Shown here piece after piece: positions 1 to 64,000 of a stretch of 64,000 bases of DNA. Within the stretch, counting starts at the first letter, position 1, and each line of letters opens with the position of its first letter. The notes beneath the pieces were generated by a model, which was not told the DNA's origin, did not search any database, and saw only the letters and a program-made list of their open reading frames with translations. The position numbers and the translations under genes were made by a program. The DNA is from an uncultured virus (IMG/VR IMGVR_UViG_3300037296_000406) (lineage: Duplodnaviria; Heunggongvirae; Uroviricota; Caudoviricetes), in the IMG/VR virus record IMGVR_UViG_3300037296_000406; one strand, written 5' to 3'.

Positions 1-465
1 TTAATCTTTATTAATCATAGGAAAAATCGTATAAAAAAATAATGGTAATGTATCTGATTTTTTTATTTTTTCTTTTATTTTTTGTCCAAATGATGTATTT
101 CTAGATGCGATAAAGAAGAATCCAACATAGAACATTAGCAAGTTAGATGTAAGAACCGTATATAAAACTAATGATCCAAAGAACATCGTATTTGAACGAT
201 AAACATTGAATGGTTTTTTAATTAAACCAATGATAGGAATTACTTGCCAAAGTAATATACAGAAGGTGTATACTAAAATTTTGTTAAGCAATGCATCATT
301 TATTGAAAAATCCATTGGGATCTGTTTAGAAAAAAAATATGTTGTCACTAGAATGTTAATGAAAGTTAGTGCTGGAAATACAAATAAGTTTAATAAATTA
401 TAATAATTATCTGGATGTTCTTTTCTAATCTTAATGTACCATTTTACTAGTGTTGTAGTTTTCAT
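1..465 (-). CDS. Hypothetical multi-pass membrane protein
   Basis: ORF 1..516 with about 3 hydrophobic segments. Likely start is MKTTT at 465, 6 nt downstream of a TATACT -10-like box (472-477, minus strand). Confidence 0.6.
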   Translation of the reverse strand: MKTTTLVKWYIKIRKEHPDNYYNLLNLFVFPALTFINILVTTYFFSKQIPMDFSINDALLNKILVYTFCILLWQVIPIIGLIKKPFNVYRSNTMFFGSLVLYTVLTSNLLMFYVGFFFIASRNTSFGQKIKEKIKKSDTLPLFFYTIFPMINKD

Positions 466-526
466 AGAAAAAGTATACCCATTAATTATTATTAAGTTTA
501 ATTTATAAAAGATCATTGTTTTTAAT

Positions 527-555
527 TTGCTTTATTCTGAGAATAAGTATATTAT
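527..555 (+). promoter_or_regulatory. Sigma70-like promoter for the histone gene
   Basis: TTGCTT (527-532), 17 nt, TATTAT (550-555); strong SD AAGGAGG before ATG 586. Confidence 0.5.
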
Positions 556-585
556 ATAAATACATATCATTTATAAGGAGGAATC

Positions 586-780
586 ATGAGTGATGAAAAA
601 AAAGTATCTTTAGTAGTAAATTCAAAAGTTAAAAAGCTGGTAGCAGATAAACATGGTCTTAGATGTTCTGCAGAAGTTATGGATACTCTTACTAAAAAAG
701 TAGAAGAAATTCTTGAGTCTGCCGCAACAAAAGCAAAAGATTCTAAAAGAAAGACTATTAAGTCAGTCGACTTAGATTAA
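586..780 (+). CDS. Bacterial histone-fold protein, Bd0055/HBb-like singlet
   Basis: 64 aa. LVVNSKVKKLV...SAEVMDTLTKKVEEILESAATKAKDSKRKTIKSVDL matches the Bdellovibrio histone pattern (LVVTSKVKKLI...SAE...RKT), including the histone-fold RKT motif. Strong SD. Confidence 0.9.
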   Translation: MSDEKKVSLVVNSKVKKLVADKHGLRCSAEVMDTLTKKVEEILESAATKAKDSKRKTIKSVDLD

Positions 781-1721
781 ATTACTTTAGAAGAAGAGTC
801 TTTTCGTAGGCTCTTCTTATTAAAAACTCCTGATAAAATATGAGTAATCATATCAACAGTAAATCCATTACCTAACATTTTATATCTTTGAGTATTTGAT
901 ATGCCTTCAACTTGAGAGTAGTTATCTGGTACAGTTTGACACCTTTCGCATTCTAATGGCGTGATATATCTAGGACCATTGATATCTGTTACTTGAAAAA
1001 ATCTTTGAGCTGAATACTTCTTGTGCATACTAGCTTCCAAACATTGCATTTTTATTTTTGGAGTATTCATTTCTTTTAATTTTTTATTTTTAGCTTTACC
1101 ATGTCTATCTAACCAAGATAACGCTGCAGGGCTGTAATAGAAATTATTCGCTACAGGTTTTTTTTCCATAATATCTTGAAAATAGATATTCTTATCTTTT
1201 GGAGGTTTTATATCAGGAATATTAGTCCAATATAACCTAGGTCTACTTTGTGCTGTTATAAGTTTTGAGTTTATAAGAATAGGCTCAACTCCCAATTCTT
1301 TAGATATAATATCTTGAAATTCTTGTTTCATATTAACATTTTCTAACAAAAAATATTTTGGTTTTAATTCTTTAACAATACGAACATATTCAAAAAAGAG
1401 TTTACTTCTAGGGTCTTCAAAATTTAATTGTTTACCACTAAAGCTAAAACCTTGACAAGGGCTTCCACCTATAACCAAATCAACACTAGTTACATCAAAT
1501 ATACCTTTTTCTGTTTCTAGTTTTTTTCTTTTGTACTTAACTTTAGTAACATCACCTATTTGATTTATCTCAGGATAATTTGATTGAGCGACTTTTATTG
1601 AATATTTATCTACTTCTGAGGCAAAGTAATTAATCTGACTATCTTTAAATCCCATTTTAGAAAATGCTATTCTCGTACAGGCCATACCATCAAATAAACT
1701 AACTATATTAATTTTTTTCAT
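777..1721 (-). CDS. dcm: DNA (cytosine-5) methyltransferase, no cognate endonuclease nearby
   Basis: Motifs SLFDGMA (I), GGSPCQGFS (IV, catalytic PC), LLENV (VI), QSRPRLYW (VIII), RYKMLGNG (X). Start moved from 1763 to MKKIN at 1721. Confidence 0.93.
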   Translation of the reverse strand: MKKINIVSLFDGMACTRIAFSKMGFKDSQINYFASEVDKYSIKVAQSNYPEINQIGDVTKVKYKRKKLETEKGIFDVTSVDLVIGGSPCQGFSFSGKQLNFEDPRSKLFFEYVRIVKELKPKYFLLENVNMKQEFQDIISKELGVEPILINSKLITAQSRPRLYWTNIPDIKPPKDKNIYFQDIMEKKPVANNFYYSPAALSWLDRHGKAKNKKLKEMNTPKIKMQCLEASMHKKYSAQRFFQVTDINGPRYITPLECERCQTVPDNYSQVEGISNTQRYKMLGNGFTVDMITHILSGVFNKKSLRKDSSSKVI

Positions 1722-1810
1722 AAACAAATAAATGGTTTTTTTATACAAAAACGTGAAGAACAATAATATTTAAATTAGACCAACTCTTAAAAATGTCTAT
1801 TCTATTTCTT

Positions 1811-3259: not shown

Positions 3260-4780
3260 ATGTCAACTAAAGAAATTAACAAAGAACTTATTATTACTGC
3301 TAAAAAACTTTTAAAAGAAAAAGGTTATGAAGTTAAGAATTCACATTTGTATGATGTTTTCGCACAATTATCAGGTCATAAAAATTGGCATATTGCCTCA
3401 AAAAAGAATCAAAATCTAACAGAAATATTAAATCAGGATCTTATAAATAAATCTAGGTTTAATTTAGATTTAAGTTTTCTCAAGGCAGGTGATGATATCC
3501 CTTTTACTTTTTTTGATAATAGATTACCTGCTTGGAATATGTCTATTGCAGGTCAAACGGGATCAGGGAAGTCTATATTGCTAAAGAAAATGATAAACAA
3601 TGAGGTAAATAAAGATCCAAATCTTGTTGTGAGAATTTACAATCAAAATGAAAAAGAATATTCAAACTTTGCAAAATCATTAGGTGGAAAATCTATTAAC
3701 TTTACACCCGATTGTAGATATTCAATTAATTTTTTTGAGATAAATCCAAACAAATCTTATCCAAATAAAGAGAAAAAAAATATAATAAAACAATTATTAA
3801 CCAAATATAGTGTAGATGAAAATAAAATAGATAATCTAATTTATAATTATTATATGTCTATTTATAATGAAAATTTAGAAAATAGAGATCAGGTTTTTAA
3901 AAAAATATTTAAATTTAATATAACTTCGGAAATTAAATCAATAATATCATTGAAAGAAGGAGATTGTGAACCTATGCCTTATGGATTATTACAATTAAAA
4001 ATGATTTTAGATTCTTTTGTTCCAGAAAATTATAAAATATTAAAGAATAAAAATGGATTGGACAAGATTATGGATGAGTTTTTAAAAGATGTTTATAATC
4101 AAGTTGGGAATACATATTCACGATACCCATCAATTTCAGATTTCTTTCTTTACTTAAGAGATGAAAAACTTGATCCTTATTTTCAAAAAGTTAAAGAATG
4201 CTTGAATAGAAACGATGGTTTTATTAAATTTGGCTATAAAACAGATAAAGTTTTTGATGAGAAAATTTTATCTATATCTTTTAAGGGCTTAGAGCAAAAT
4301 AATGAATTATATGGAATGTATAAACAAATTGTAGTTTTATTTCTAGACATGAAATTAAAAAGCTTGGAATGTGATGTTAGAAAGATTAATGCATTTGATG
4401 ATATATGGGAAGCTAGTCCTAAAAGTAATTGGAATCCTATTTTTCATAATATTTTAGGAACTTCTAGAAGAAATAATATAGGAAACATTTCATGTGTTCA
4501 GTCATTATCTGATTATTATATGATTGATGAAAATGAGGGGAGAGGTATTTTAAAAAACTTTCAAAAAATCGTTCAAGGAAAAACAAATTCTAAAATTACA
4601 GATATTTTTTTTAAAAAAGAATTTGGTTTTATTGATGAAGATTTAGAATTATTTGAAAAATATTGTGGAATTAGTCATAGCACAGAAGGTACTGGTTTTT
4701 TATTAATACATGAATATATATTATCTCCATTTCGGTTAAAAGTAACTCCAACTGAATATAATAAATTTACAGATTATTAA
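3260..4780 (+). CDS. VirB4/TraC-like P-loop ATPase domain fused to a small N-terminal helical (Glyoxalase_8-like) domain
   Basis: Walker A GQTGSGKS, INFFE, Walker B-like NAFDDIW, SRRNNIGNISCVQS. N-terminal AKKLL...SHLYDVFAQLSGHKNWHIA pattern. Confidence 0.7.
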   Translation: MSTKEINKELIITAKKLLKEKGYEVKNSHLYDVFAQLSGHKNWHIASKKNQNLTEILNQDLINKSRFNLDLSFLKAGDDIPFTFFDNRLPAWNMSIAGQTGSGKSILLKKMINNEVNKDPNLVVRIYNQNEKEYSNFAKSLGGKSINFTPDCRYSINFFEINPNKSYPNKEKKNIIKQLLTKYSVDENKIDNLIYNYYMSIYNENLENRDQVFKKIFKFNITSEIKSIISLKEGDCEPMPYGLLQLKMILDSFVPENYKILKNKNGLDKIMDEFLKDVYNQVGNTYSRYPSISDFFLYLRDEKLDPYFQKVKECLNRNDGFIKFGYKTDKVFDEKILSISFKGLEQNNELYGMYKQIVVLFLDMKLKSLECDVRKINAFDDIWEASPKSNWNPIFHNILGTSRRNNIGNISCVQSLSDYYMIDENEGRGILKNFQKIVQGKTNSKITDIFFKKEFGFIDEDLELFEKYCGISHSTEGTGFLLIHEYILSPFRLKVTPTEYNKFTDY

Positions 4781-8864: not shown

Positions 8865-10016
8865 CTATTTCTTAAAGTTGCTATTACTAATAACTCTTCC
8901 TTTAAATAGATTATTCGGATAAATATTATCTCGAAGCCAATCTTTCTCTGTTTCAGATTCGCTCTCAGATACATAAGTGTACCATGCTCTACTGTCTTTA
9001 TTCCACATATAACCACGAGCTTTTAAAAAATCTTTTGTTTCATAAGGAGTATTGTCTGCAAAAATAATATATTCTTTTACTGTTTTCAAGTTACTGTCAA
9101 TATTTAAAACTTTCTTATTATCACTTTTAGTTTTAGAAAGAACAGTTAAATCTTTAAATCTATTTTTAGAATTCAAAACAACTTTTTCAACAGTCGTTGA
9201 TTTATATTTTGCTAATTTAGTAGTTAATTCATTTTCTATTTTTAGACATTCGGATTCATCTCTAAAGTACTTGTACCAAAATTTAGTATTAGCTTCCCAC
9301 ATAAAGTTGTGAAGATTGAAAATAGATTTTGAATCAAAAGGTGTATTTTTCGCTATTAGAAGGTATTCTTTATTATCAATATTATTATTTAAGTATTGAA
9401 AATACGTCATATCTTCGAGAGGTGTATTTTGTTGTAATAATTCAGCTAAAGCTTTAGTATCATTAATCGCTCTGTGTCCTACAAAATAAAATCCATGATA
9501 TTCACATAAAGATTCTTGATTTTTTTTAGGGAAATTCCAGTCATCCCAATCTAAATCTTTGATAGAGCAAGTCCAAGGAATATCTTTTAATGAATCTATT
9601 TTTTCTTCAACAAAAGGTCTGTCAAATTTACTATTATGTGCAACACAAAAATCTACACTTTCCATATCCTTATCAACTTCATCCCAATCTATTTTCTGAC
9701 CTTCTAGATCTTTATCAGTAATTCCTGTAATACGGATTATTTGTTCATCAAGTTTCTCTTGAGGATCTTCTAAACCGTTAAACTCTTTTAACACTTTTAC
9801 AATTTTACCTGTTTTCATAGAAACTTGTAATTTTAAATATCCGAGTTCTATTATTTTATGTTCTTTAGAGTTTAAACCTGTAGTCTCAACATCAATAACT
9901 AAAATGGTCTTTAGATCTATTATATCGTTGGGACTTAATGATAAACCTACAAAGGGCTTTATTAATATACATCCGTCTTCTTGTAATCCAATTCTTCTAT
10001 ATCTTAGCTTTTCCAT
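8865..10016 (-). CDS. DEDDh 3'-5' exonuclease (DnaQ-like) with two C-terminal repeat domains
   Basis: ExoI IDVETTG, ExoII AHNSKFD, ExoIII HRAINDT; two NTP(F/Y)..K......W.....WY units. Confidence 0.9.
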   Translation of the reverse strand: MEKLRYRRIGLQEDGCILIKPFVGLSLSPNDIIDLKTILVIDVETTGLNSKEHKIIELGYLKLQVSMKTGKIVKVLKEFNGLEDPQEKLDEQIIRITGITDKDLEGQKIDWDEVDKDMESVDFCVAHNSKFDRPFVEEKIDSLKDIPWTCSIKDLDWDDWNFPKKNQESLCEYHGFYFVGHRAINDTKALAELLQQNTPLEDMTYFQYLNNNIDNKEYLLIAKNTPFDSKSIFNLHNFMWEANTKFWYKYFRDESECLKIENELTTKLAKYKSTTVEKVVLNSKNRFKDLTVLSKTKSDNKKVLNIDSNLKTVKEYIIFADNTPYETKDFLKARGYMWNKDSRAWYTYVSESESETEKDWLRDNIYPNNLFKGRVISNSNFKK

Positions 10017-51206: not shown

Positions 51207-52631
51207 TTATTCATCATCTTCAAGATCATCGGTATTATCTAATTGAATTCTAAGTTCCTTATAAAAATCTTTATTGTTTCCAATAAATTCTAAAGCGTTA
51301 TTAAACTGATTAAAAAATTGAGTTTTTGACGAAAGACTCCACTGATTGTCTGTTGGTAATTCCGCGCACATAACATGATTAGGGCTTGCTGTACAATCTT
51401 TAATGGGTAAGCCAACCATTAAACCAAGTTGTCTTGCTATTAGAGCAGTTAATCCATCTCTAGTTATACCTCCATTTCCTCCATCACATAAAGCATTATT
51501 TGCATCAAAACAAGAGGATCTTAAGATTAAAGAAAAATTTCTTTTGTAGGCTTGATTTATAAACATTACTGAATTTGGATCTGCAGGCGATAAATCATTA
51601 TCTGTAATAAATCCGTTTATATCAACATCGGGCCAAATCATTACATAACTTTTTGACCTCTCAGCTAACTCTGTTCTTTCAAAGTAAAATGGAATTGATG
51701 ATTCTGGAGTAGTTTGTTCTTCTTTTGAGAAATAATTACATCCTAAAATTGTTGAACAAGATATTTCATTTAATGATTCAATTACATCTTGCATAAAAAA
51801 AGTATTGTTTTTTTGTCCATTGGGACTTGCTAACGCTAGTGTTTTATCCATCCAAGGTTTTTCTAAACATGATGAGGCATAAGCTCCATCATTATAAAAA
51901 TTTGAATTATTTTCTATTGTAATTAAATGAGAAGTTAATGCTTGATAATAAGATGATCTATTCTGTGAATTCCATTGTTCATCTTTAGATTCTGGACATA
52001 GAACATCGTTTGGACTTGATATACAGTCCACTGGAGGCATCTGAAGAACTAAACCTAACTGCCTAGCAACTAATGCATTTAAGCCATCTATACCTAATTG
52101 TCCGCAAGAGAATCCACCTTCTCCATCAAAACACGATGCTCTAAATATCATATAAAATTTTCTTTTAAATTTAGAATTTACTATCGAGATTGCATTTCTA
52201 TCAGGAATATTATTTAAACCTCCAAAGTTGGTATTAACAAAGTCTTCAAATTTTGAATCTTCCCAAATTAATATAAAACTGTCATAATCTTGTTGATTTA
52301 AATTTGAAGGTCTTATTGGTTGTAATAACTCTGAGTTTTTAGTTTTAAATCTAAAATAATTTTCACCTAATCTAGATTCTAATTCTATTTTTCTAATTAT
52401 ATCTTGTATTGTTTTTTTATCAAATGTGTTATTTCTATTTGGGTTAGTTGGATCTGAAGTTGCAAAATATAAATCTCTATCTATCCACCTTAAGCAGTTT
52501 ATTTCCCAATCAGTAATTAAAGATATATCCGAAGAAGTATCATCATTCGTGTCGTCATCTGTTTTAGTTCCGCATGAAACAATCGAGAAACTTAATACAA
52601 ATATGAAAAATATATTTATTTTTTTTATCAT
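51207..52631 (-). CDS. Lipoprotein with two tandem zincin-like domains lacking HExxH
   Basis: Lipobox IVSC; internal duplication (NNTF, RASCFD/RSSCFD, ALVARQLGL/ALIARQLGL). Confidence 0.8.
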   Translation of the reverse strand: MIKKINIFFIFVLSFSIVSCGTKTDDDTNDDTSSDISLITDWEINCLRWIDRDLYFATSDPTNPNRNNTFDKKTIQDIIRKIELESRLGENYFRFKTKNSELLQPIRPSNLNQQDYDSFILIWEDSKFEDFVNTNFGGLNNIPDRNAISIVNSKFKRKFYMIFRASCFDGEGGFSCGQLGIDGLNALVARQLGLVLQMPPVDCISSPNDVLCPESKDEQWNSQNRSSYYQALTSHLITIENNSNFYNDGAYASSCLEKPWMDKTLALASPNGQKNNTFFMQDVIESLNEISCSTILGCNYFSKEEQTTPESSIPFYFERTELAERSKSYVMIWPDVDINGFITDNDLSPADPNSVMFINQAYKRNFSLILRSSCFDANNALCDGGNGGITRDGLTALIARQLGLMVGLPIKDCTASPNHVMCAELPTDNQWSLSSKTQFFNQFNNALEFIGNNKDFYKELRIQLDNTDDLEDDE

Positions 52632-52638
52632 AATAATA

Positions 52639-54354
52639 TTAATAAATGTGTTCTAAATTCTCTGTTAATCCATTAAATTTAAAATAAGGAGTTCTTCTAA
52701 CTGGCTTATTTCCAAAACTTTGAATTAGAGTACTCAGTCCCGCAGTTCCTCCATATTGATTTAAATATTGATTAATAGTGAATGTTTTTTGTGCATTAAA
52801 ATAAACCCATCCAGTTAATCCTTGACTTTGTTCATTTGCATCTAGACAAGCTTCAGCTTTCTTTGAAACTAATTCATAATTTCCACTTCCACCCGAGCTT
52901 CTTGAATAAACTCTCATACAACCTTCCATTTTGAAAGTTACAGTTCTTATTCCATTAAAATGTCCTGTTATATTTCTTAAAGAATCTTCTGGAATGTAGT
53001 TGAAATAGCTAAAGAAAGTATCTGTAGTATCAAATTGAGTAGTTAATTTATCTTGCTTTGATAAAAATAATTTTTGATTGGTTTGAGGGTGACATATAGA
53101 AAGAAAACCTTCACTATTATTGGCTGTTTCTTTTTCAGCTTCAGCTGCTAATGGTGCAAAAGGAATCCCTGTTATCTCTTGACAAGTTGGTTTATATGGC
53201 GTAATTAAAGAAATTCCTTGCGGGTTATTATATAAAGCATTTTGAGTTAAATCCATAATAAATTCTAAATCCCAAGGAGTACCTGCAGGAAGGTTATTAA
53301 TCTCAAAAGTTCTTCCGTCGGTTAAATTCTGAAGAGAGTTGTTCATTCTTATTTTTAGATTAAAGTCGGTGTCGGTGTCTAATGATACGGTTTTTACATA
53401 ATAATTTTGACCTCTAACTATAGAAACTTCACCTTTTTCTTTAAATCTATCTAAGTCAATTGGATTTTCAAAAAACAATTCTTGTTCTATAACAATTTTA
53501 GGTCTATTTTTAAAAAGTATTCTCAGATCAGATTGAGTTGCTTCTGGCTGGTCATCTTCTCTTAATGTGAAAAATGAAAAGTTTTGATTTGGTACATTAT
53601 CATCTCCATCAAAATAAAAATTAAATCTATCTTGTAGAGAGAAATCTGTTATATCATCAGAATAATCGATAAAAAAGTCTGTAACTGGAGTTTGCAAATA
53701 ACTTTCAAATTCAATAACAACTGGAGTTTGACCTTGTATATCAGCACTTTCTGCTGATATAGATATTTCATGAAGATATCTCTTACCGACTTCGTCATTG
53801 ACTGAATAAAATTGTCCCTGAAACATTGCATTTATAAGAGGTAGGAAAGCTCTATTTTCAAACACTTCCATTGTTCCAGTAAAAGATGCTACATCTTGTC
53901 CATTTAATTCTTTTTTCTTATATCTATAGATATAATTTGTATTAGCATTAGCTTCTACTTCAATAAACGGTATAGTACTAAAATTTTCTTCAAGGAATGA
54001 TGTCGGATTATCTTTTTGATTCATTGATTCTTTTATAATATTAATAGCTGCATTTTTTGTTAAGTTAAGAAATGATGAGTACGCAGGAATTACTTGTCCA
54101 AATATTCCACCTCTTAAATTATCAGCAGTTATATCTTTCCATTCTTTTTCAATAGGACTATAAAAAGTAGTGTCTACAAAATTTAATGCAAGATTTACTT
54201 GTTGTCCATCAATGTCTCCAATGTTTTTTGTACATTTTGCATCATCAACATTAGTTGCGCTTGAACATGGAGACTCATCATCGCTACTTTGAGAACAAGC
54301 TCCGAGAGCAATTAGCATACATAGCGTAATAAGTGTCTTAATCAGTTTATTCAT
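52639..54354 (-). CDS. Hypothetical lipoprotein
   Basis: Lipobox LGAC; SD AGGAG; CCATTTA at 54376-54382. Confidence 0.8.
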   Translation of the reverse strand: MNKLIKTLITLCMLIALGACSQSSDDESPCSSATNVDDAKCTKNIGDIDGQQVNLALNFVDTTFYSPIEKEWKDITADNLRGGIFGQVIPAYSSFLNLTKNAAINIIKESMNQKDNPTSFLEENFSTIPFIEVEANANTNYIYRYKKKELNGQDVASFTGTMEVFENRAFLPLINAMFQGQFYSVNDEVGKRYLHEISISAESADIQGQTPVVIEFESYLQTPVTDFFIDYSDDITDFSLQDRFNFYFDGDDNVPNQNFSFFTLREDDQPEATQSDLRILFKNRPKIVIEQELFFENPIDLDRFKEKGEVSIVRGQNYYVKTVSLDTDTDFNLKIRMNNSLQNLTDGRTFEINNLPAGTPWDLEFIMDLTQNALYNNPQGISLITPYKPTCQEITGIPFAPLAAEAEKETANNSEGFLSICHPQTNQKLFLSKQDKLTTQFDTTDTFFSYFNYIPEDSLRNITGHFNGIRTVTFKMEGCMRVYSRSSGGSGNYELVSKKAEACLDANEQSQGLTGWVYFNAQKTFTINQYLNQYGGTAGLSTLIQSFGNKPVRRTPYFKFNGLTENLEHIY

Positions 54355-55097: not shown

Positions 55098-57107
55098 ATG
55101 GTTAAAGAAATTAAGAGAAAAACTAAAGTTAGCGAAGCTAAAATTGAAGAGAAAGACCAAAGATGGCACACTAGAAACAGAATCACTTTAGTTTTTGGAT
55201 CTAATGATTTAGAAAATTTAAGTACTTATTTATATGATAAAGATCTTAATATAGAGTTTAAGGAGTTAGATTTTCATCAGGCAAAATCAAAAGCTATTGA
55301 AGAATTGCTCGATAATTGCATTGATGAATTTTATAGAGGTCATGTTACTGAGGTTCATGTAGAACTAAAAAAAGATAAAAAAACTGTCGTTGTTCAAGAC
55401 AATGGAATTGGATTTCCTGTAAACAAGATAGTTGACGTTTACTCTAAGTTTAGAACAGGTTCTAAATTTAAAGATGAGGGTTTAGATAAAAAAGGCTTTC
55501 TTAATCGTACTTTAGGTCAAAATGGTCTAGGCGCCGCGGCGACATGCTTAACTTCTGATTACTTTAAAGCAACAGTTAGGCATCACAACTCAAAAAAAGA
55601 ACAGACAGTTGAGTTTATAGATGGTGCTCTTAAGACAAAAAATTCTAAAGTTAAAAAATACAGAGGAGCTTCTGGAGTTAAAATTGAACTACAACTATCT
55701 ACTGAAGTATATAAAGACAATATTATAGATGAGCAATTATTAAGAAAAAGAATAATTGATTTAACTTATAACAACCCCGGATTAGTCTTTTATTTCAATG
55801 AAGAAAAATTTGTATCTAAAAAAGGATTAAGTGATTTAGCAATGATGGTAGATAAACAGACAGGTCAAACTCTGGGAGAAGATACTTTTATTCAAGAAGT
55901 TAAATTACAGAATAAAAAAGGTACAGCGAAAGGTAAGTATGATGTCTCAATATCAGTTGCTTACGAAACAAAATCTTATGAAAAAGAAAAGTTTATATCT
56001 TTCGTAAACTCTACACCTACATACGATGGTGGCTTTCATCATGACAGAGTAAAGCGAATATTTATAAATGAAGTTAAAGAAAAATTAAAAAGAGAAGCGA
56101 GTAAGAATAAAGTTGAATTAATGGATAGCGACATTGTTTCTGGTTTAGTTTTTATTATTGGGATAATTATGCCAAACCCTAGGTTTGAGTCTCAGACAAA
56201 AAGAAAACTTGTAAGAGATTGGCCTCTTGAAAAAAGTATTGAAGAATTAATTAAAGATAATATAGTTAAATTTTTCAAAAGAAACAAAGAATACTTAGAA
56301 GCTGTTATTGAAAGAGCTAAATCTAGAAATAAATTCGAAGTTTTAAAAGATGCATCAAAAATTGCAAAAAAAGTAAATAGTGCAAAAATCGCAAAACTCC
56401 TTGATGCTAATGAGAGAAAGGATAGAAGTAAATGTTCTTTATTTATCTGCGAAGGCGATTCTGCTATTGGTGGGTTAAGATCTTCTAGAGATAAACTCTA
56501 TCATGGAGGAATAGCGCTTAAAGGTAAGCCTATGAACGTTCTTCAGGCATCACTCAATGATATCCTTAATAATAAAGAATTCACTGATATAATGGGCTCT
56601 ATCGGTCTTACATTGGGTCAAAAAGCTGAGGGTAAGTCTTTAAGATTCGCTAATATTGTTTTTCTAGCAGATTCTGATGTTGATGGTGGACATATTAATA
56701 CACTTTTAACTAATTTCTTTTATAGATTTTGGCCTGAATTGTTTCACGAAGGTAGAATTCAGGTAACTAAAGCTCCTTTATTTGAGGTAGTTACTTCTAC
56801 TGGAAAAAGATTATTTGCGGAAAGCGATTCTGAGCTTGCTAATATTAAAAAAGACAAAAGGGTTACGATAAAAAACATTATGAGAAATAAAGGACTTGGT
56901 GAAATGAGCGATGAAGCTTGGACTTACATTTTGTCAAAAGATAAATACACTGTAATTTATTCTAATGATAAAGAAGAATCTACAGAGATGCTTGACATTT
57001 GTTTCGGAAAAGATGCACAGGCGAGAAAAGACTTATTACTTGCAAGTAATAAAGCAAATCCTAGTAAGTCAAAAAAAATAACTAAAAAGAAAGTAACTAA
57101 AAAATAA
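55098..57107 (+). CDS. Type IIA topoisomerase B subunit (GHKL ATPase plus TOPRIM)
   Basis: EELLDNCIDE, DNGIG, GQNGLG, FESQTK, EGDSA, LKGK, DSDVDG, RNKGLGEM. Confidence 0.95.
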   Translation: MVKEIKRKTKVSEAKIEEKDQRWHTRNRITLVFGSNDLENLSTYLYDKDLNIEFKELDFHQAKSKAIEELLDNCIDEFYRGHVTEVHVELKKDKKTVVVQDNGIGFPVNKIVDVYSKFRTGSKFKDEGLDKKGFLNRTLGQNGLGAAATCLTSDYFKATVRHHNSKKEQTVEFIDGALKTKNSKVKKYRGASGVKIELQLSTEVYKDNIIDEQLLRKRIIDLTYNNPGLVFYFNEEKFVSKKGLSDLAMMVDKQTGQTLGEDTFIQEVKLQNKKGTAKGKYDVSISVAYETKSYEKEKFISFVNSTPTYDGGFHHDRVKRIFINEVKEKLKREASKNKVELMDSDIVSGLVFIIGIIMPNPRFESQTKRKLVRDWPLEKSIEELIKDNIVKFFKRNKEYLEAVIERAKSRNKFEVLKDASKIAKKVNSAKIAKLLDANERKDRSKCSLFICEGDSAIGGLRSSRDKLYHGGIALKGKPMNVLQASLNDILNNKEFTDIMGSIGLTLGQKAEGKSLRFANIVFLADSDVDGGHINTLLTNFFYRFWPELFHEGRIQVTKAPLFEVVTSTGKRLFAESDSELANIKKDKRVTIKNIMRNKGLGEMSDEAWTYILSKDKYTVIYSNDKEESTEMLDICFGKDAQARKDLLLASNKANPSKSKKITKKKVTKK

Positions 57108-57128: not shown

Positions 57129-58529
57129 ATGAGTAAAGAAGACAACAAATCAATTAATAGTTTAGCTAAAATCAGTTTAAAGGATTTAGTTCAACAAGAA
57201 TACAGAATATATCAACTATATACGTTGATGGATAGAGCACTGCCTTATTTAAGAGATGGATTAAAGCCTTCTCAAAGAAGAATACTTTATACATTATTTA
57301 AAAATCAGAATAAAGGGTTACTTAAAGTTTCTTCTGCAACAGGATTAGTTCTATCTTTACATCCGCATGGACCAGCTTCTGTTGAATCTGCCATTGTTAA
57401 TTTAGCTCAAGACTATACATTTTCTAATAACTATCCTCTTGTTGAAAAGAAAGGATATTTTGGAGAAAGAATGGAGAACCAGCCTGCAGCTTCAAGATAC
57501 ATTGAATGTAAACTTAGTAGTATTTCTAAATTTTTATTATTTGATGATATGAATCAGGTTAATATGATTCCTAATTATGATGAACGAATGCTAGAACCTC
57601 AATCACTTTTACCTAAACTTCCATTAATGTTACTTAACGGTGCAGAAGGTATAGCGACAGGATACAGTTGTATGATACCATCATTCCACCATAAAGATAT
57701 TATTGATAGTATGATTGAGTTTGTTAAAACTGGTAAAGCTAAAAAAATTAAAGCTTGGGTTGATAACTATAAAGAAAATATTAAATATGATAAAGATAGA
57801 AACAGATACATATTTAACATGAAAATAGAAAGACTTAAGAAAAAAACTGGTGGTTTTGGATATTATATAACAGAGCTACCAAGAGGATATAATGCAACTA
57901 AAATAAATAATCACTTAAATAAATTAGTGGATGATGATTTTATAAAAGATTATATTGATAGTACTGTTAAGAACAATGTTATGATTGAATTAGTTTTTAA
58001 GAAAGGAAGCCGAATTAGTCTAGAAAATGTTATATCTCGAGTTAGTGCAACATCTACTCTAGTCCCTAACTACACATTAATCTCAGATGAGGGTGTTGAA
58101 GTTTTTGTTACTCCTGAATCTATTATAGAGATTTTCACAACTCAAAGATTAGGCGTTGTGAAAAGAAGATATGAACTGCTTTTAGAAGATGCTAAAAATA
58201 GAATTCAAAAGAATAATGAAATCATTAGATTTATTAAAGAAAAACATTATGATATAGCACAAAAGAAGCAAGATAAAGCTGACTATCTTAAGTATCTTAA
58301 AAGTAAAAAATTCGTTCATTATGATTATCTTGCAGAAATGAGTATATACAGAATGACTAAAGACGAAGTTTTAAAAAGAGCTTTAATGATTAAGGAAGAT
58401 TCTCCTAAAATAAAAGAATTTGAAGGTATTATTAAAAGCAAGAAAAAAATTCAAGATAAACTTTTTGAAGAACTTATAGAAGTTAAAGAAGTTTTAAGTA
58501 ATTTTTTAAGAGATAAAAATAGAAAATAA
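57129..58529 (+). CDS. Type IIA topoisomerase A subunit lacking the C-terminal pinwheel
   Basis: RALPYLRDGLKPSQRR, HPHG, catalytic AASRY, LLNGAEGIATG; only 466 aa. Confidence 0.95.
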   Translation: MSKEDNKSINSLAKISLKDLVQQEYRIYQLYTLMDRALPYLRDGLKPSQRRILYTLFKNQNKGLLKVSSATGLVLSLHPHGPASVESAIVNLAQDYTFSNNYPLVEKKGYFGERMENQPAASRYIECKLSSISKFLLFDDMNQVNMIPNYDERMLEPQSLLPKLPLMLLNGAEGIATGYSCMIPSFHHKDIIDSMIEFVKTGKAKKIKAWVDNYKENIKYDKDRNRYIFNMKIERLKKKTGGFGYYITELPRGYNATKINNHLNKLVDDDFIKDYIDSTVKNNVMIELVFKKGSRISLENVISRVSATSTLVPNYTLISDEGVEVFVTPESIIEIFTTQRLGVVKRRYELLLEDAKNRIQKNNEIIRFIKEKHYDIAQKKQDKADYLKYLKSKKFVHYDYLAEMSIYRMTKDEVLKRALMIKEDSPKIKEFEGIIKSKKKIQDKLFEELIEVKEVLSNFLRDKNRK

Positions 58530-58532
58530 TAT

Positions 58533-58562
58533 AAAGGTATTAATAATAAAGTTACTACCTTT
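58533..58562. terminator. Possible bidirectional terminator
   Basis: AAAGGTA...TACCTTT inverted repeat between convergent genes. Confidence 0.45.
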
Positions 58563-60811
58563 TAAAAATTGAAATTTAAAAATTGTAATTGATAAAAAAC
58601 TCCAGATTGACCGTCAACAATATATATAATATCTCCTGTTTCAGAGTAGTGAATACCGGTTAGTCCTTTCAAGTCGGGTAAATTACCAATGCTCGCACTG
58701 ATATATTCTCCTTCAGGATTATTAACTTTAAAGGTATAAGGAATACCAACGTTGTTATTTTCGAATAAATTTGACCAAACATAAACAAAATTATTATCAT
58801 TATCTACGGCATATATACTATCGCCTTTAACTGAAAAGTCATTTACATTATCTAAACCAAAGACTACATTTTTGTAATCTCCAGCTCCGCCAGCCGATCC
58901 ACTTAATATAATTAGTTTATCAAAGTCTTCTTGACCGATAACACTTTCGGCAGAACAAGAACCTGTACCAAATGTTAGTGAATTACAGACTGGACTAGAA
59001 CCTTTTAATGGAATATCATCAAACATTAATATTCGAGATCTTAAAGCTACTTGAGTTCCTAAGTCTGATATCGTAAAGAAATCTTCATTTGATAAAACTA
59101 AGAACTTAACATCTCCATTAGCCTTTGTCATCTTACTTAATTTTGTAGGATTTTTAAAATATCTTTTTAATAAAGTCGCATCAGAGATTATATTAGAGAA
59201 AGTTCCTGTTAAAATACTATTGTCATTATCATAAAAATCTTGTAAAGATAAAGTTTGTGAATAGTTTTGTTGACCTAAAACTCCTGACCATCTACAAAGA
59301 GATGTCAACCATGAAGAGTCGTTACAGTCATAAAAATCGTTTAAATCTGTCCCATCTCCGTTAAAAGCTCCATAGAAATTTCCTACTTTAACGACTCTAT
59401 TGTTCAATGTGTCAGCTATATATAAATCTGATTCGTCAACTAATAAACCTGTCGGATTATTTAATGAAGCTTCGCCAGAAGATAGCGTATAGCTAGTAAA
59501 ATCATCTGAAGTTTTTTTACCAAAAACTTTTTGAAAAGAACATTTTACAGGTTTTAAAAAATTAGGAATTATAGCTGGATCACATCCAATTATACTCAAA
59601 TCTATATCTTCTGTTGTATTTCCCGGAGAAAACAAAACATCTTCATAAAGAACCACTCTATCATTTCCAGTATCGCTTACTATCAATTGACCTCTATTGT
59701 ATAAAACTTCTGTAGGTTGAGTTAGACATTGATTACCTTTTACAATGCAAGAATTGTTTTGCCATTTACAAAAACTAGGATAACCGCCAAAACCTAAATC
59801 ATGGTCAGCATTGCAATCTTCTTCTGATAAGAAAACCGCACATTCATTATTATGCCCTTCACATGACAACGTGTCAAATTGTGAAGGTTGTCCTAAAACA
59901 TTATGAGCAGATAAAGGAGCACCTTGATTACTCAGATAACAATTATATATGTATATATCTCGATTTCCTTCATCTTGCGCCTCATCACTTGATAGTAACT
60001 GTTGTAAACAACTTCTTAAATTTGCATTTTCCCAAATTACAATCCTGTTATTATCTGTATCTGAAACAAATGCCATTGAACCACTTGAGTCTGCTGTAAT
60101 TCTTCCTTTAGGTATTGTACTTGTAGGAATTCCCGGGTCAAATGTTCTTAAGTTAGCTATATCACCAACAGTACCTGAAGATGAAGCATAATTAAATCTT
60201 TTTTTCTCCCAAAAGTCTTGTGGGGATGGAACTCCTGAACTAATTCCTCCGCTTGTTGATATTATCGTTATTTGTGATGAAGAAGACCAGTTTCCAAGAA
60301 CTTGCTCTCCTGTTAATTGAGTCGGATTTAAGAATCCTTCTAGAACAACGAAACCGTAGTAAAAATATGTATTTCCTTCTCTAATATCAGTATCCTCAAA
60401 AGAAGTATCTTTTAGCCTTGCGATTTCAAAATTGATAACTCCTAAATTGTTTTGAGGGCTATTCAATCCTACTCTAGTTTCTTCAGAATCAAAAACACTA
60501 TCTTGTTCTAGTCTAAAAATAACAACAACGTATTCTTCTGTTGAATATAAGTTAGGAACATTCCAAGTTAAAGTGATTTTACCATTATCTTCAAAACTTT
60601 CAGTAGGACAATCAGATTCTGGGTCTAAATTAGGACATCCTTTAAAATTAATCAAGGGTCTTACTACATTTATTCCGTCTATGTTGGAACCCGGAGAGCC
60701 CGGATCAAAAACAAATCCGTCATTCTCATCAGATTCTTCTTCAGCTTTAGAGCATCCTGTTAACCCGAAAACTGTGAAAGAAAGTAGAATTAATATTAAT
60801 ATTTTTTTCAT
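58562..60811 (-). CDS. Lipoprotein with FnIII-like domain and NHL beta-propeller repeats
   Basis: Lipobox LTGC; VSDTDNNRIV, VSDTGNDRVV, IADTLNNRVV and VLGQ motifs; CCATTTA 8 nt before the ATG. Confidence 0.88.
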   Translation of the reverse strand: MKKILILILLSFTVFGLTGCSKAEEESDENDGFVFDPGSPGSNIDGINVVRPLINFKGCPNLDPESDCPTESFEDNGKITLTWNVPNLYSTEEYVVVIFRLEQDSVFDSEETRVGLNSPQNNLGVINFEIARLKDTSFEDTDIREGNTYFYYGFVVLEGFLNPTQLTGEQVLGNWSSSSQITIISTSGGISSGVPSPQDFWEKKRFNYASSSGTVGDIANLRTFDPGIPTSTIPKGRITADSSGSMAFVSDTDNNRIVIWENANLRSCLQQLLSSDEAQDEGNRDIYIYNCYLSNQGAPLSAHNVLGQPSQFDTLSCEGHNNECAVFLSEEDCNADHDLGFGGYPSFCKWQNNSCIVKGNQCLTQPTEVLYNRGQLIVSDTGNDRVVLYEDVLFSPGNTTEDIDLSIIGCDPAIIPNFLKPVKCSFQKVFGKKTSDDFTSYTLSSGEASLNNPTGLLVDESDLYIADTLNNRVVKVGNFYGAFNGDGTDLNDFYDCNDSSWLTSLCRWSGVLGQQNYSQTLSLQDFYDNDNSILTGTFSNIISDATLLKRYFKNPTKLSKMTKANGDVKFLVLSNEDFFTISDLGTQVALRSRILMFDDIPLKGSSPVCNSLTFGTGSCSAESVIGQEDFDKLIILSGSAGGAGDYKNVVFGLDNVNDFSVKGDSIYAVDNDNNFVYVWSNLFENNNVGIPYTFKVNNPEGEYISASIGNLPDLKGLTGIHYSETGDIIYIVDGQSGVFYQLQFLNFNF

Positions 60812-60903: not shown

Positions 60904-61437
60904 TTATTTGAGTATTTCCGCCCCATCTTTTCCAATTCCAATTTCTTTACCTACAACTTCTTTTAAAACATTTTCTACTGTTTCTTTAATGAACATTTCT
61001 TTTTTTGAATTAAACATTTTGTCTTGTTCATCAGATAAACCTGTTATGATTTTTTCTTCTAGTAAAGGAATAAAAGGACCTTCAATTAGAGCTTTAGTTA
61101 TTTCTTGCTTAATTAGATTTTCTTGGTCAACAAGCTTGTCGGCAAGAACTTTATTAATCACATCTTTATACTGATCTAGTTCTTTTTTAGCCTCAATATA
61201 AACATCTTTTTTTATTTCTTCAATTAGAGCTTCTTTACCTTTATCCATAACCTCTTTCTTAAGTTCTTCTCTCATTTCAGCTTGAAGTTCTTTTTTTAGA
61301 TTGTTTTTTAGTACGTCTTGCTGAATTTTCAATTCAATCATTTCTTTTTTCATTTCTTCACTATGCTTTTTCAAATCACTCGATGTTGCACAAGATGTGA
61401 TTAGAGTTAAAGCAAGTAAACTTAGTAATGTTTTCAT
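60904..61437 (-). CDS. Coiled-coil lipoprotein
   Basis: Lipobox ITSC; SD AGGAG. Confidence 0.78.
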   Translation of the reverse strand: MKTLLSLLALTLITSCATSSDLKKHSEEMKKEMIELKIQQDVLKNNLKKELQAEMREELKKEVMDKGKEALIEEIKKDVYIEAKKELDQYKDVINKVLADKLVDQENLIKQEITKALIEGPFIPLLEEKIITGLSDEQDKMFNSKKEMFIKETVENVLKEVVGKEIGIGKDGAEILK

Positions 61438-61449
61438 TAATTTCTCCTA

Positions 61450-61959
61450 TTATTTATTATTAATTTTTATATTATAAGCTTTTTCACAGTAAGAGTCTGG
61501 AATTATAGTTCCCATCATATCTGCATTACTGTTATTTGCTGGGTTTGTATCTGCGCTACAGACTGGATTTCCGCAACTCATATCAAGAGTATCTGCTCTA
61601 AATTTACATTTCCTTGAAGAATTAAACTCAAAGAAAAAAGAGTATCTATAACCACTGTCATCAATATACCGAACATTCAACATCTCAGGTTTAAAAAATC
61701 TGTAACTTCTTTCATACTCTTTTAACATTTTACTTTCAATTTGAGATAGTGTTGCTAAATCCACTTTACCTACATCATCCATAGACAATTCTGAAATTTT
61801 CATAATTTGACCTTGAATTATTTGTTTCATCAATGGCATAATTTCAAATTTTATTTTATTTTTATCATACAGTTTTAAAAAATCATCTTTAGATATTTTT
61901 TCTGCTGATAAAACATTAAACGAACTTATGATAATAATAAGTGCAATAATTTTTTTCAT
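61450..61959 (-). CDS. Secreted hypothetical protein
   Basis: Signal peptide; four Cys near the C-terminus; start overlaps the upstream stop. Confidence 0.75.
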   Translation of the reverse strand: MKKIIALIIIISSFNVLSAEKISKDDFLKLYDKNKIKFEIMPLMKQIIQGQIMKISELSMDDVGKVDLATLSQIESKMLKEYERSYRFFKPEMLNVRYIDDSGYRYSFFFEFNSSRKCKFRADTLDMSCGNPVCSADTNPANNSNADMMGTIIPDSYCEKAYNIKINNK

Positions 61960-62408
61960 TATAAACCTACCCTGTCATTAAAATCTTTTAGTTGTAATCT
62001 CTCTTTTATTCTTGGACCAATACCCTGACCATTAGGAAGAAGTCTTGGAGGAATTACTTGCCTTACTTTTCTAAAGTATAAAGATTCTTTTTTTTCATTT
62101 TTTTGTTGCTCTAATAAATTGTACTTTTTAATTTGGTCTTTTAAAAAAAGTTCTTGATTTTCAAATTCTGCACCATACTTACTTTCATAATGACCTTTTA
62201 TTAAGAAACCTACTGTTCCTGCAACCGCACAATAAATAGCCGCATTCTTCATTTCTTCGCCTTCAGTTCCAGTACTATAACCTACAGCGGCACCTATAGC
62301 ACATCCTGCAGTTGGTTCAAAGTACTCCCATTCAAATATCCCTGCGTTAGCTTTTTGCATATTTGAAATTCCTAGTAGTAAAATTAAGCTTATAATTATT
62401 TTTTTCAT
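61959..62408 (-). CDS. Secreted glycine-zipper protein, paralog 2
   Basis: KANAG...FEPTAGCAIGAAVG...YCAVAGTVG. Confidence 0.78.
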   Translation of the reverse strand: MKKIIISLILLLGISNMQKANAGIFEWEYFEPTAGCAIGAAVGYSTGTEGEEMKNAAIYCAVAGTVGFLIKGHYESKYGAEFENQELFLKDQIKKYNLLEQQKNEKKESLYFRKVRQVIPPRLLPNGQGIGPRIKERLQLKDFNDRVGL

Positions 62409-62862
62409 ATATCCTCTTTTTAATTATGGTGCTTTAAGCAATATTTTCTTTGTTGGAGAAAATACACTTCCGTCTGGTTGTTCTTGAGCTTCTTCTATCT
62501 GTTCAGCTTCTATTGCATAATAATCGTCAATGATTCCTAAATTAGCTTTTTCAGCTTGACGGACAACCCTTACTCTTACTTCATCTTTTAATCTTTGTAT
62601 CCTATCTTCATGAACAATATCTACCTTCTTTCTCCAATATTGATTCATAGTGTAACCTAATATGGCTCCACCTAAACAATAGAGACCTGCTTGTGTTGCA
62701 TCTCCATCACCACTGATGCCTACGGCTCCACCGACTGCACAAAGAACTGTTGGTTCAAACCAATTAGAACTATAAAAACCTGCATTAGCTTTTGGGCTAA
62801 CAAATAATAGTGTGAATGTTAATGTTAAAAATAATTTTTTCATATATCCTCTTTTTAATTAT
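62400..62862. repeat. 28-bp exact direct repeat covering stop codon, SD and start of two paralogs
   Basis: TTTTTTCATATATCCTCTTTTTAATTAT at 62400-62427 and 62835-62862. Confidence 0.9.
62424..62843 (-). CDS. Secreted glycine-zipper protein, paralog 1
   Basis: KANAG...FEPTVLCAVGGAVG...YCLGGAILG. Confidence 0.78.
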   Translation of the reverse strand: MKKLFLTLTFTLLFVSPKANAGFYSSNWFEPTVLCAVGGAVGISGDGDATQAGLYCLGGAILGYTMNQYWRKKVDIVHEDRIQRLKDEVRVRVVRQAEKANLGIIDDYYAIEAEQIEEAQEQPDGSVFSPTKKILLKAP

Positions 62863-63629
62863 TGATCGTTTGGTAAAATACTAAGTTCACGACTCTTTTT
62901 GTCTAATAGTAATTTTTCACCCGGATTTAAAACTCTTTCTGATGACCATATCATATAGAAACCGGGTTTATTTTCCCATTCACCTTTTTCATCAACTCTA
63001 GGAAATGAATTCTCAACAATATACTTTATTTCTCTATATCCTAAAAAGTCAGGTGGTAAATTTTGTTTTTCTTGGTCTGCAGCGTCATAGATAGCATCAA
63101 ACTGACCTCTAACGATGACTGTAGTATTCATTGACATTGGAACTGGAAATGTGAGTATCTCATCAATTAAAAACACAATTGATTTCCTGTCTTGACTTAA
63201 AAGATTGTACATATCGCTTGATTGAGCATATTTTTTTTCGTTTAAACCTCTTTCAGGTCCTTTTGACATAAAAATAGCCTTCCACTTTGCATCTGATAGT
63301 CTTGCCTTATCATATCTTTTTGAACCATCTTTTTCTGTTACTAACTTATGAAAATCAAAAATTTGCTCATTTCTTGTTAAGTGCACATATTCTTCAATAA
63401 ACATTTGCATTTTAGCATCATGATTAATTGGATGAGCTGCCGATTGAATATATACTGCTGGGTAATGAGTTTCAATTTGTGGAATACATGAAACGGCATC
63501 TCTATCTTTAGCCCATTTTTCATTTATTACATTTTTAAAAATAGAGCTTCCGAAAGCAATGATAGTAAATATGATTAATAAATAAACTCTTCTTGAGAAT
63601 AGTTCAATTTCTTTAGTTTCTTTTTCCAC
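62859..63629 (-). CDS. Second VirB8-like bitopic protein
   Basis: TM then CIP; KMQMFIEEYV; C-terminal NKPGFYM; same layout as 25520..26230. GTG start with SD GGAGG; CCATTTA at 63647-63653. Confidence 0.55.
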   Translation of the reverse strand: MEKETKEIELFSRRVYLLIIFTIIAFGSSIFKNVINEKWAKDRDAVSCIPQIETHYPAVYIQSAAHPINHDAKMQMFIEEYVHLTRNEQIFDFHKLVTEKDGSKRYDKARLSDAKWKAIFMSKGPERGLNEKKYAQSSDMYNLLSQDRKSIVFLIDEILTFPVPMSMNTTVIVRGQFDAIYDAADQEKQNLPPDFLGYREIKYIVENSFPRVDEKGEWENKPGFYMIWSSERVLNPGEKLLLDKKSRELSILPNDQ

Positions 63630-63680
63630 TACTTCCTCCAGTCACATAAATGGTAAATATATAAAATATCCATTCGTTTT

Positions 63681-63965
63681 TTAAGATCTTTCTACATAGT
63701 TTTGGATATTTTCTATATTATAATCTATCTTTTTTATTAACTCTTCTTTTTTGTCTTCATCAGTATTCTTGATCATTTGCTTCATTGTATATGTATGAGA
63801 AATTTTTTCTTGAATTTTATAAATTCTTTCTAGCATTAATTTTTCACTTGTAGTGAGTTCATCTAGAAAACCTTTTTTTCTTGCTCTTTTTTTATCATAA
63901 GTTTCTTCGCCTGAAACTTCTTTTTGGACTATTTCTGCGTAACCCATTAGATTTAAATTCTTCAA
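63681..63965 (-). CDS. Hypothetical protein
   Basis: 94 aa charged ORF; start uncertain. Confidence 0.55.
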   Translation of the reverse strand: MKNLNLMGYAEIVQKEVSGEETYDKKRARKKGFLDELTTSEKLMLERIYKIQEKISHTYTMKQMIKNTDEDKKEELIKKIDYNIENIQNYVERS

Positions 63966-64000
63966 TTTATAAATAAGTCTCTTTTTTTCAAATCTTCCAG

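Follow-up and report, generated by a model that had tools for sequence, protein, structure and literature searches.

A 64-kb stretch of a metagenome contig, probably from a salt lake, as a candidate part of a very large plasmid-like element of a Bacteriovoracia-type host

What kind of replicon carries a histone gene, two topoisomerases, a ParAB partition system and parts of a secretion machine in close company, with hardly a gene for translation or metabolism? The question is raised by the 64,000 bp analyzed here (the window), positions 1 to 64,000 of IMG/VR record IMGVR_UViG_3300037296_000406, which is filed under an uncultured member of the Caudoviricetes. A first reading, made from the sequence alone, had proposed a giant extrachromosomal element of a Bdellovibrionota-like host. 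An exact protein look-up placed the window on a single JGI/IMG metagenome contig of 518,954 bp; the window proteins fall in clusters of one or two members in this look-up, and the run that is its probable source carries the label salt lake metagenome (share 1.00 of sampled words). Another six runs, from six studies, contain 20-30% of these words and a further eight 5-20%, figures that we do not take to indicate habitat or spread. Our answer, which we hold with moderate confidence, is that the window comes from a plasmid-like mobile element of very large size, whether free or integrated, in a Bacteriovoracia-type host. That it belongs to a free giant replicon is a narrower claim, which we put forward tentatively.

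The main evidence is a set of genes that recur on a plasmid from a different class within the phylum. This is pBdHM1 (AP029175.1), a 160,999-bp plasmid of Bdellovibrio sp. HM001 whose record is complete and circular. One-third of the open reading frames (ORFs) in the window (18 of 54, the full set covering 95% of the window) match pBdHM1 at E < 1e-3, and 15 do so at E <= 1e-10, values that relate to a database of only 161 kb. The shared backbone lies in the following genes, many of which encode components like those of a type IV secretion system (T4SS) or envelope proteins:

3260..4780, plus strand: VirB4/TraG-family-like P-loop ATPase, short form, 506 amino acids (aa) (weak VirB4-type matches; homology to pBdHM1)
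20681..21603, minus strand: two small lipoprotein genes between the S21 and VirB10-like genes (N-terminal lipobox or signal-like sequence)
21924..24455, minus strand: VirB10/TrbI-like protein, 843 aa (PF03743, 39.3 bits; cutoff 35)
24478..25530, minus strand: VirB9-like secreted protein (Atlas leads to CagX, TraN, TrbG/VirB9 and TraK clusters; pBdHM1 match)
25520..27703, minus strand: membrane protein in the VirB8 position, with a 111-aa and a 364-aa membrane protein (gene position; pBdHM1 matches)
29050..39730, minus strand: three tandem secreted paralogues of 586, 2048 and 908 aa (all-against-all blastp, E 3e-28 to 3e-60)
49619..54354, minus strand: two membrane proteins and two lipoproteins common to pBdHM1 (tblastn, E 6e-13, 9e-23, 8e-34 and 1.5e-59)
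58562..60811, minus strand: NHL-repeat lipoprotein, 749 aa (full-length pBdHM1 match, E 2e-67)
60904..63629, minus strand: small envelope proteins and a 256-aa membrane protein (pBdHM1 matches)

Four of these genes, encoding the VirB10-like, VirB9-like and VirB8-position proteins and the w26609 membrane protein, form a block that is collinear in the window and in pBdHM1. The VirB10-like protein is 33% identical to a TrbI-bearing protein of the plasmid, which itself scores 45 bits for TrbI, and the VirB9-like protein is 36.5% identical (E 7e-61) to the product of the gene adjoining it. The genes at 25520-26230 (E 9e-28) and 26609-27703 (E 1e-15) match pBdHM1 genes in the same order, and 20935-21603 matches weakly (E 4e-5). 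Outside the block, the 506-aa ATPase aligns over 400 aa (24.5% identity, E 6e-22) with the ATPase part of a 966-aa TraG-P-loop protein of the plasmid. Two lipoproteins, the NHL protein of 749 aa and one of 571 aa, match over their full length, and a duplicated-domain lipoprotein, two membrane proteins, two small envelope proteins and, weakly, ParA have counterparts as well. The terminal domains of the giant paralogues match pBdHM1 genes at 108-112 kb. The products of 61959-62408 and 62424-62843 are paralogues that both match one pBdHM1 gene, and 62859-63629 matches (E 2e-39) the gene directly upstream of the plasmid's VirB4/TraG-like gene. Three backbone proteins, including the VirB10-like family and the NHL lipoprotein, match pBdHM1 alone among the 72,556 plasmids of PLSDB. 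By comparison, TopA, topoisomerase II, MutS, RecJ, ParB, the histone, S21, the exonuclease and the methylase of the window have no match on pBdHM1.

How far do these genes justify the T4SS-like label that they had been given from sequence alone? The label stands for the TrbI/VirB10 domain, which scores above its cutoff, and rests on weaker evidence for the others. The 506-aa ATPase reaches 28-37 bits with VirB4-type NCBIfam models whose cutoffs are 325-590, and FtsK/DUF87 (Pfam) falls just under cutoff. The Atlas leads for the VirB9-like protein have a feature score of 0.90 and a structural template-modelling (TM) score under 0.5, and the VirB8-position protein was placed by gene position, its single-sequence model (predicted local distance difference test, pLDDT, 41) being too poor for a fold search. 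The VirB10-like protein belongs to a rare family, with only 108 representative clusters matching among 1.84 billion proteins (HMMER); one relative, P0355 (44% identity), lies on a 606,797-bp contig, and another on a contig of 93,970 bp.

The plasmid itself encodes TrbI, a TraG/VirB4 P-loop ATPase, ArdA, an SLT transglycosylase, ParA, two FtsK-like ATPases and a tyrosine integrase, and is typed as non-mobilizable in PLSDB. It also encodes its own split Pol III alpha, DnaB-like helicase, primase, RecA, SSB, RuvC, ribonucleotide reductase alpha and beta, dUTPase and dNMP kinase. Pfam revealed no capsid, portal or terminase family in its 109 ORFs of >=166 aa, and among its 31 large unannotated ORFs PHROGs gave one faint terminase-ATPase match, beneath a stronger FtsK match.

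The second line of evidence is the arrangement of the window itself. All genes named in the sequence-only reading (topA, topoisomerase IIA, parAB, recJ, mutS, a dnaQ-like gene, rpsU and a histone gene) are present according to Pfam, PHROGs and NCBIfam, rpsU as a borderline case. These and a methylase gene are referred to below as DNA-care genes:

586..780, plus strand: histone-fold protein of the Bd0055 (HBb) type, 64 aa (PDB matches 8cmp and 8fvx)
777..1763, minus strand: C5 cytosine DNA methyltransferase, Dcm (PF00145, 144 bits; TIGR00675, 145 bits, cutoff 101)
8865..10016, minus strand: DEDD 3'-5' exonuclease, DnaQ-like (NF006615, 256 bits, cutoff 207; PF00929, 61 bits)
10758..13004, plus strand: TopA, type IA topoisomerase, short form, 748 aa (TIGR01051, 675 bits; cutoff 456)
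13590..14384, plus strand: parA, 264 aa, Soj-size (AAA_31, 202 bits)
14353..15234, plus strand: parB, 293 aa, Spo0J type (ParB_N, HTH_ParB and ParB_C domains; TIGR00180, 163 bits)
17737..20454, minus strand: MutS with a C-terminal Cys/His HNH module, MutS7-like architecture (MutS domains I, II (weak), III and V)
20466..20678, minus strand: ribosomal protein S21 (rpsU), divergent and borderline (PF01165, 28.6 bits, cutoff 27; TIGR00030, 27.3 bits, cutoff 28.95)
47939..49612, minus strand: RecJ single-strand exonuclease (DHH, DHHA1 and RecJ_OB; TIGR00644, 380 bits, cutoff 397)
55098..57107, plus strand: large subunit, 669 aa, of a two-subunit type IIA topoisomerase (phrog_543, 449 bits)
57129..58529, plus strand: A subunit, 466 aa, of the same enzyme, without a C-terminal domain (PF00521, 293 bits)

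An array of 26 minus-strand genes runs from 16377 to 55035 (38.7 kb) with every gap <=85 nt. It mixes T4SS-type envelope genes (VirB10-like, VirB9-like, VirB8-position, lipoproteins, an outer-membrane barrel and the three giant paralogues) with those for MutS-HNH, S21 and RecJ, and is flanked by TopA, ParAB, the DEDD exonuclease, the Dcm methylase, the Bd0055-type histone and the two-subunit topoisomerase II. About 1.5 kb separates the MutS gene from the VirB10-like gene upstream of it, and RecJ is 6 nt from a membrane-protein gene shared with pBdHM1. Because the gaps are so short, MutS, S21 and RecJ form one unit with the backbone. The GC content at third codon positions (GC3) is 0.171 both in 11 DNA-care-type genes (S21 and ParA included) and in 17 genes shared with pBdHM1, and the two classes have therefore long resided together. 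For the same reasons, equal GC3 and tight interleaving with gaps <=85 nt, a recent integrative and conjugative element in a chromosome of other composition is unlikely. Relatives of these genes lie on contigs of the same size (MutS and TopA 25,376 bp; MutS and topoisomerase II 45,333 bp; TopA and VirB10-like 93,970 bp), which suggests that the linkage persists in relatives, as judged from identical contig sizes.

The S21 gene is wedged inside this array, 2 nt from a lipoprotein gene and 11 nt from the MutS-HNH gene.

The remaining gene content is sparse in what a cell would need. No tRNA was detected in the window, nor any Rfam match at gathering thresholds, and bacterial-chromosome markers (rRNA, tRNA, a ribosomal-protein cluster) are absent from it apart from the borderline S21. 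Pfam families at E <= 1e-3 are missing from 32 of the 49 ORFs of >=80 aa; the 17 ORFs with a family include one of metabolic type, a 2OG-Fe(II) oxygenase, and one translation gene, S21. The usual chromosomal neighbours gidAB, dnaA, dnaN and dnaG did not turn up in Pfam and NCBIfam scans of the window ORFs, and PHROGs revealed no capsid, portal, terminase or tail-tube family among 52 ORFs. The sequence-only reading is confirmed on these counts, the oxygenase being the one family of metabolic type. The window has a GC content of about 29%, with a GC3 of 17%. Stop codons of the 54 ORFs are TAA (50), TAG (3) and TGA (1), with no in-frame evidence of a recoded stop seen. Promoter-like and terminator-like sites are not commoner in the window than in shuffled sequence.

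Several observations were counted in favour of a mobile element: the backbone held in common with pBdHM1, its close interleaving with DNA-care genes and the scarcity of tRNA, translation and metabolic genes; the self-contained MutS, the short, fast-evolving TopA, the divergent S21 and a parAB pair without a nearby canonical parS; and the small size of the clades formed by MutS-HNH and the short TopA (10 and 12 members). To these we added that type IV secretion and conjugation both go unmentioned in the main text of the genome paper on Halobacteriovorax (Bacteriovorax) marinus SJ. The giant conjugative element proposed at the outset is upheld as far as the conjugative-plasmid-like backbone and the contig size go; a relaxase or a coupling protein is not among the window ORFs in Pfam, PHROGs and NCBIfam scans, the window being 64 of 519 kb.

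Other points weigh against this reading. The window covers only 64 kb of the 519-kb contig, and this part shows no replication initiator, relaxase, coupling protein, integrase or contig end. The argument from scarce metabolic genes is weakened because the window was chosen for looking odd. Plasmids of Bdellovibrionota are few in PLSDB, with perhaps next to none besides pBdHM1, and the matches to pBdHM1 alone may therefore reflect the phylum rather than plasmid specificity, and the linkage in relatives rests on the identical sizes of contigs, not on their sequence. The large topoisomerase II subunit falls within the Bacteriovoracia on a branch of ordinary length, which is what vertical inheritance of a chromosomal gene would produce, and the placement of TopA is that expected of a deep sister lineage.

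These last points lead to the alternative that survives best: the window would be an ordinary segment of the chromosome of an uncultured, deep-branching, AT-rich Bacteriovoracia-like bacterium, in which the T4SS-like genes are native and TopA, MutS-HNH, ParAB, topoisomerase II, the histone and S21 are the sole copies of the cell. We consider this somewhat unlikely, although both topoisomerases speak for it. The closest relatives of the large topoisomerase II subunit are 82-84% identical, followed by a continuum down to 63-66%, a range that includes Halobacteriovorax marinus (3.39-Mb contig), Peredibacter starrii (4.15 Mb) and Halobacteriovorax sp. JY17. In a FastTree tree of 74 rows, rooted with two phages, the nine-row clade of the window (support 98) is one of about six basal lineages within a 100%-supported Bacteriovoracia clade, and its root-to-tip distance (about 0.38, vs 0.26-0.31 in cultured genera) marks an ordinary branch. 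Pairwise, the window protein is 64-65% identical to those of named genera, which are 70-71% identical between genera.

TopA gives a similar placement with a longer distance. The window protein and 11 relatives of 735-765 aa form a clade at 53-73% identity. The next relatives are about 50-53% identical, and all organism-labelled ones come from Halobacteriovorax, Bacteriovoracaceae, Bacteriovorax, Bdellovibrio or Oligoflexia; these are mostly 775-874 aa long, many of them on Mb-scale contigs. The tree that the sequence-only reading called for (FastTree, 123 rows, rooted with three gammaproteobacteria) shows the short clade (12 rows, support 100) as sister to the other 108 rows, all of Bdellovibrionota type, which agrees with a chromosomal gene. 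On the other hand, the window TopA falls short of the named TopA proteins by about 80 aa and is more diverged from them (52-54% identity) than they are from each other (68-79%). A genome-contig scan with TopA returned gammaproteobacterial matches only, at 33-38% identity.

Because of these relatives and trees, the guess of a Bdellovibrionota-type host was right, and the histone match and the barrel lead agree with such a diderm host. The host most likely belongs to the Bacteriovoracia (Bdellovibrionota) or to a sister lineage of theirs, as an uncultured and very AT-rich salt-lake relative of Halobacteriovorax. The same comparisons undo another part of the sequence-only reading, that the histone, topoisomerase II and TopA mark an element with its own control of chromatin and topology: the nearest relatives of the topoisomerases are ordinary Bacteriovoracia genes on Mb-scale contigs, and the histone type is widespread in the phylum.

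The histone and ParAB also bear on the choice between chromosome and element. Residues 9-62 of the 64-aa protein find 8cmp and 8fvx as best PDB matches (E 3e-7, 33.7 bits), and all its scores for Pfam histone families lie under their cutoffs. The data-availability passage of the structure's paper identifies 8FVX as Bd0055. Published passages report a Bd0055-type homologue in 67% of Bdellovibrionota genomes, which suits a chromosome, and they also mention Bd0055-like histones in IMG/VR viral genomes. ParA and ParB are of the chromosomal Soj/Spo0J type, again as in a chromosome; however, no canonical parS with <=2 mismatches exists in the whole 64 kb. Two parS-like sites have 3 mismatches each (vs 1.86 expected by chance), neither of them near parAB. 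DnaA boxes occur at chance level, Pfam finds no Rep family among the window ORFs, and repeated palindromes (GC-containing) or iteron-like repeats are absent from the window.

Further arguments for a chromosome are the uniform GC3 across gene classes and the precedent of the Rickettsiales, in which chromosomal T4SS genes are scattered among housekeeping genes. Many orphan genes also appear to be normal in this group of bacteria, because 34.5% of H. marinus SJ genes over 500 nt lack a database match, according to published text on that strain. Against a chromosome stand the lack of tRNA genes, the borderline S21 and the single oxygenase as the only genes of their kinds among the 17 ORFs with a Pfam family, the 18 ORFs common to a plasmid from another class, and MutS, which is of the self-contained HNH form and has no named Bdellovibrionota relative among 105 significant matches.

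This MutS merits a closer description. Its match to MutS_II is weak (34 bits, model positions 1-60 of 133), and MutS_IV (PF05190) is absent in all 10 members of its clade, the window MutS and nine relatives at 40-73% identity. Across these 10 sequences the Cys/His columns of the HNH module are invariant or nearly so (>=90%). The next full-length matches beyond the clade are ordinary MutS proteins of <=29% identity; one further match with an HNH module, P0063, is 24% identical. Matches in plasmid and phage records reach about 33% identity at most and end at about query residue 815-820, never covering the HNH module. A metagenome-contig scan with the MutS alignment (generic motifs) gave at least 80 loci; those listed include neither the source contig nor any close relative, and the 10 examined were ordinary MutS without HNH. 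Judged by domain architecture, a MutS7-like clade exists in the lineage of the window, whichever reading holds.

Could the window instead come from a phage, as its record name implies? A huge phage or phage-plasmid of 0.5-0.6 Mb, infecting Bacteriovoracia, endowed with S21 and host-like genes of DNA metabolism and with its virion genes outside the window, seems very improbable to us. PHROG families exist for S21, the T4-type topoisomerase II, the DEDD exonuclease, RecJ and the methylase, residues 272-507 of the 2048-aa paralogue match PHROG tail-fibre and virion-protein families, histones of this type are on record for viral genomes, as said above, and contigs of 519 and 607 kb are within the size range of huge phages. 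However, no virion family was found among the 52 ORFs scanned; scans of IMG/VR with TopA, with topoisomerase II, twice with MutS, and with the VirB10-like family both as a single protein and as a 22-sequence alignment, gave no relative; a search of 50,697 phage records with the VirB9-like protein was likewise empty; and the window is dense in lipoproteins, with an outer-membrane barrel and T4SS-type genes.

The topoisomerase II pair is instructive here. Like the phage T4-type enzyme, it consists of a GyrB-like large subunit and a short GyrA-like subunit without a C-terminal domain, and its best profiles are those of PHROG phage topoisomerases (phrog_543, 449 bits; phrog_551, 360 bits), GyrB models reaching 280 bits, far under their cutoffs. 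Yet identity to phage proteins is about 30%, vs 63-84% to Bacteriovoracia proteins on Mb-scale contigs. The topoisomerase is a lineage gene of Bacteriovoracia and not a phage marker. Homologues on Mb-scale contigs are recorded merely as 'toprim domain-containing protein', and one H. marinus record as 'hypothetical protein'. As far as these comparisons go, a T4-like two-subunit topoisomerase II appears to be a regular gene of Bacteriovoracia, whichever reading of the window holds.

Likewise highly improbable is a reading in which the contig makes up most of the genome, about 0.5-0.6 Mb and much reduced, of a tiny symbiont or epibiont related to Bacteriovoracia: the 519-kb contig, the 607-kb contig of P0355, the GC3 of only 17% and the fast-evolving TopA, S21 and MutS would suit it, but translation and core genes should dominate 0.5 Mb, and a 12% sample has no tRNA and one borderline ribosomal protein, with 32 of 49 ORFs lacking a Pfam family, proteins of 2048 and 1610 aa among them.

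Three further genes of the array lie between or beside those shared with pBdHM1:

27750..28514, minus strand: protein ending in a Lys/Ala-rich tail (12-nt tandem repeat, 25.5 copies, 27767-28072)
39770..41983, minus strand: outer-membrane barrel protein with a long Lys/Glu-rich tail (Atlas structural matches)
43059..47891, minus strand: 1610-aa lipoprotein with thrombospondin-type-3-like Asp-rich repeats (NF047638, 102 bits, cutoff 350; lipobox)

The Lys/Ala-rich tail could be a DNA-binding or spacer region; an ORF on the opposite strand (27712-28101) was dismissed as an artefact of the 12-nt repeat. Residues 21-290 of the barrel protein reach Atlas TM scores of 0.72-0.79 with PF13557/OmpA-family barrels, which we treat as a lead. 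The best NCBIfam match of the 1610-aa lipoprotein, well under its cutoff, is MtsC, a cell-cell cohesion protein. The three giant paralogues share an N-terminal domain (about 225 aa) and a C-terminal one (about 245-310 aa) around a variable middle, and the 2048-aa member has a fibrinogen-like GGGWT domain. In domain layout, the three resemble a cassette system by which surface proteins could be varied. A crude lipobox regular expression flagged 7 ORFs, and about 10 more have signal- or transmembrane-like N termini; the flagged 30810-36956 was read as having an ordinary signal peptide instead.

How might such an element, if the favoured reading of a plasmid-like mobile element is correct, sustain itself? 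We hypothesize that a low-copy replicon would be partitioned by the Soj/Spo0J-type ParAB at a non-canonical centromere, and that TopA and topoisomerase II would handle supercoiling and decatenation of a very large AT-rich molecule. The histone may compact the element and the Dcm methylase may mark it. MutS-HNH, together with RecJ and the DEDD exonuclease, could provide a nicking mismatch repair independent of MutL and MutH. The T4SS-like machine, the barrel, the lipoproteins and the giant secreted paralogues would presumably serve cell contact and the transfer of the element or of effectors, and S21 may bias translation.

We further suggest, again tentatively, that there is a family of capsid-less autonomous elements of at least 0.5 Mb in predatory Bdellovibrionota, much as there are Borgs in archaea, of which the 519- and 607-kb contigs are maybe two members, equipped with T4SS-type transfer, a histone, two topoisomerases, ParAB and MutS7-type repair. 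Were the contig a replicon of its own, it would rank with the largest mobile elements linked to bacterial predators, and its plasmid lineage would be one equipped with a histone, with its own set of topoisomerases and with a repair enzyme of the MutS-HNH form. The pattern that a giant genome needs its own mismatch repair would then extend from giant viruses and organelles to bacterial plasmids.

Which known systems come closest? Borgs, megaplasmids and chromids are very large replicons with host-related housekeeping-type genes, often of lower GC content than the host, and the window resembles them in lying on a very large contig with such genes. Borgs, however, are linear archaeal elements without a T4SS, and chromids usually have recognisable plasmid replication and partition systems, whereas no replication system was seen in the window. 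Self-contained repair of the MutS7 type is otherwise typical of giant viruses and octocoral mitochondria. The window MutS shares with MutS7 of Mimiviridae, octocoral mitochondria and epsilonproteobacteria the domains I, III and V and the C-terminal HNH module, without domain IV; it differs in a weak match to domain II, and is likened to MutS7 by domain architecture. The MutS7 architecture, and the self-contained repair function proposed for it, are described in passages of PMC3166940. The histone resembles Bd0055/HBb of Bdellovibrio bacteriovorus as a 64-aa singlet histone fold whose closest PDB entries are Bd0055; the match, however, has 33.7 bits only, and the gene may sit here on a mobile element and not on the chromosome.

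The sequence-only reading knew of no described element with this gene combination. A related element, pBdHM1, is in fact in the public record, although we found no paper on it, nor anything relevant on Bdellovibrionota or Halobacteriovorax megaplasmids or on Bacteriovoracia extrachromosomal elements. The two differ in many respects. The plasmid has 161 kb and a GC content of 48.7%, the window a GC content of about 29% on a contig of at least 519 kb; shared proteins have no more than 24-38% identity, and gene order is scrambled outside the four-gene block. The DNA genes of the plasmid are a replisome set, those of the window TopA, topoisomerase II, MutS-HNH, RecJ, the histone and S21, and the plasmid ParA is a long form of 438 aa, vs 264 aa in the window. 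Nevertheless, both interleave the backbone with DNA-metabolism genes, most genes of both are unannotated, and pBdHM1 in a cultured Bdellovibrio offers a bench model for the secretion and lipoprotein backbone that they share.

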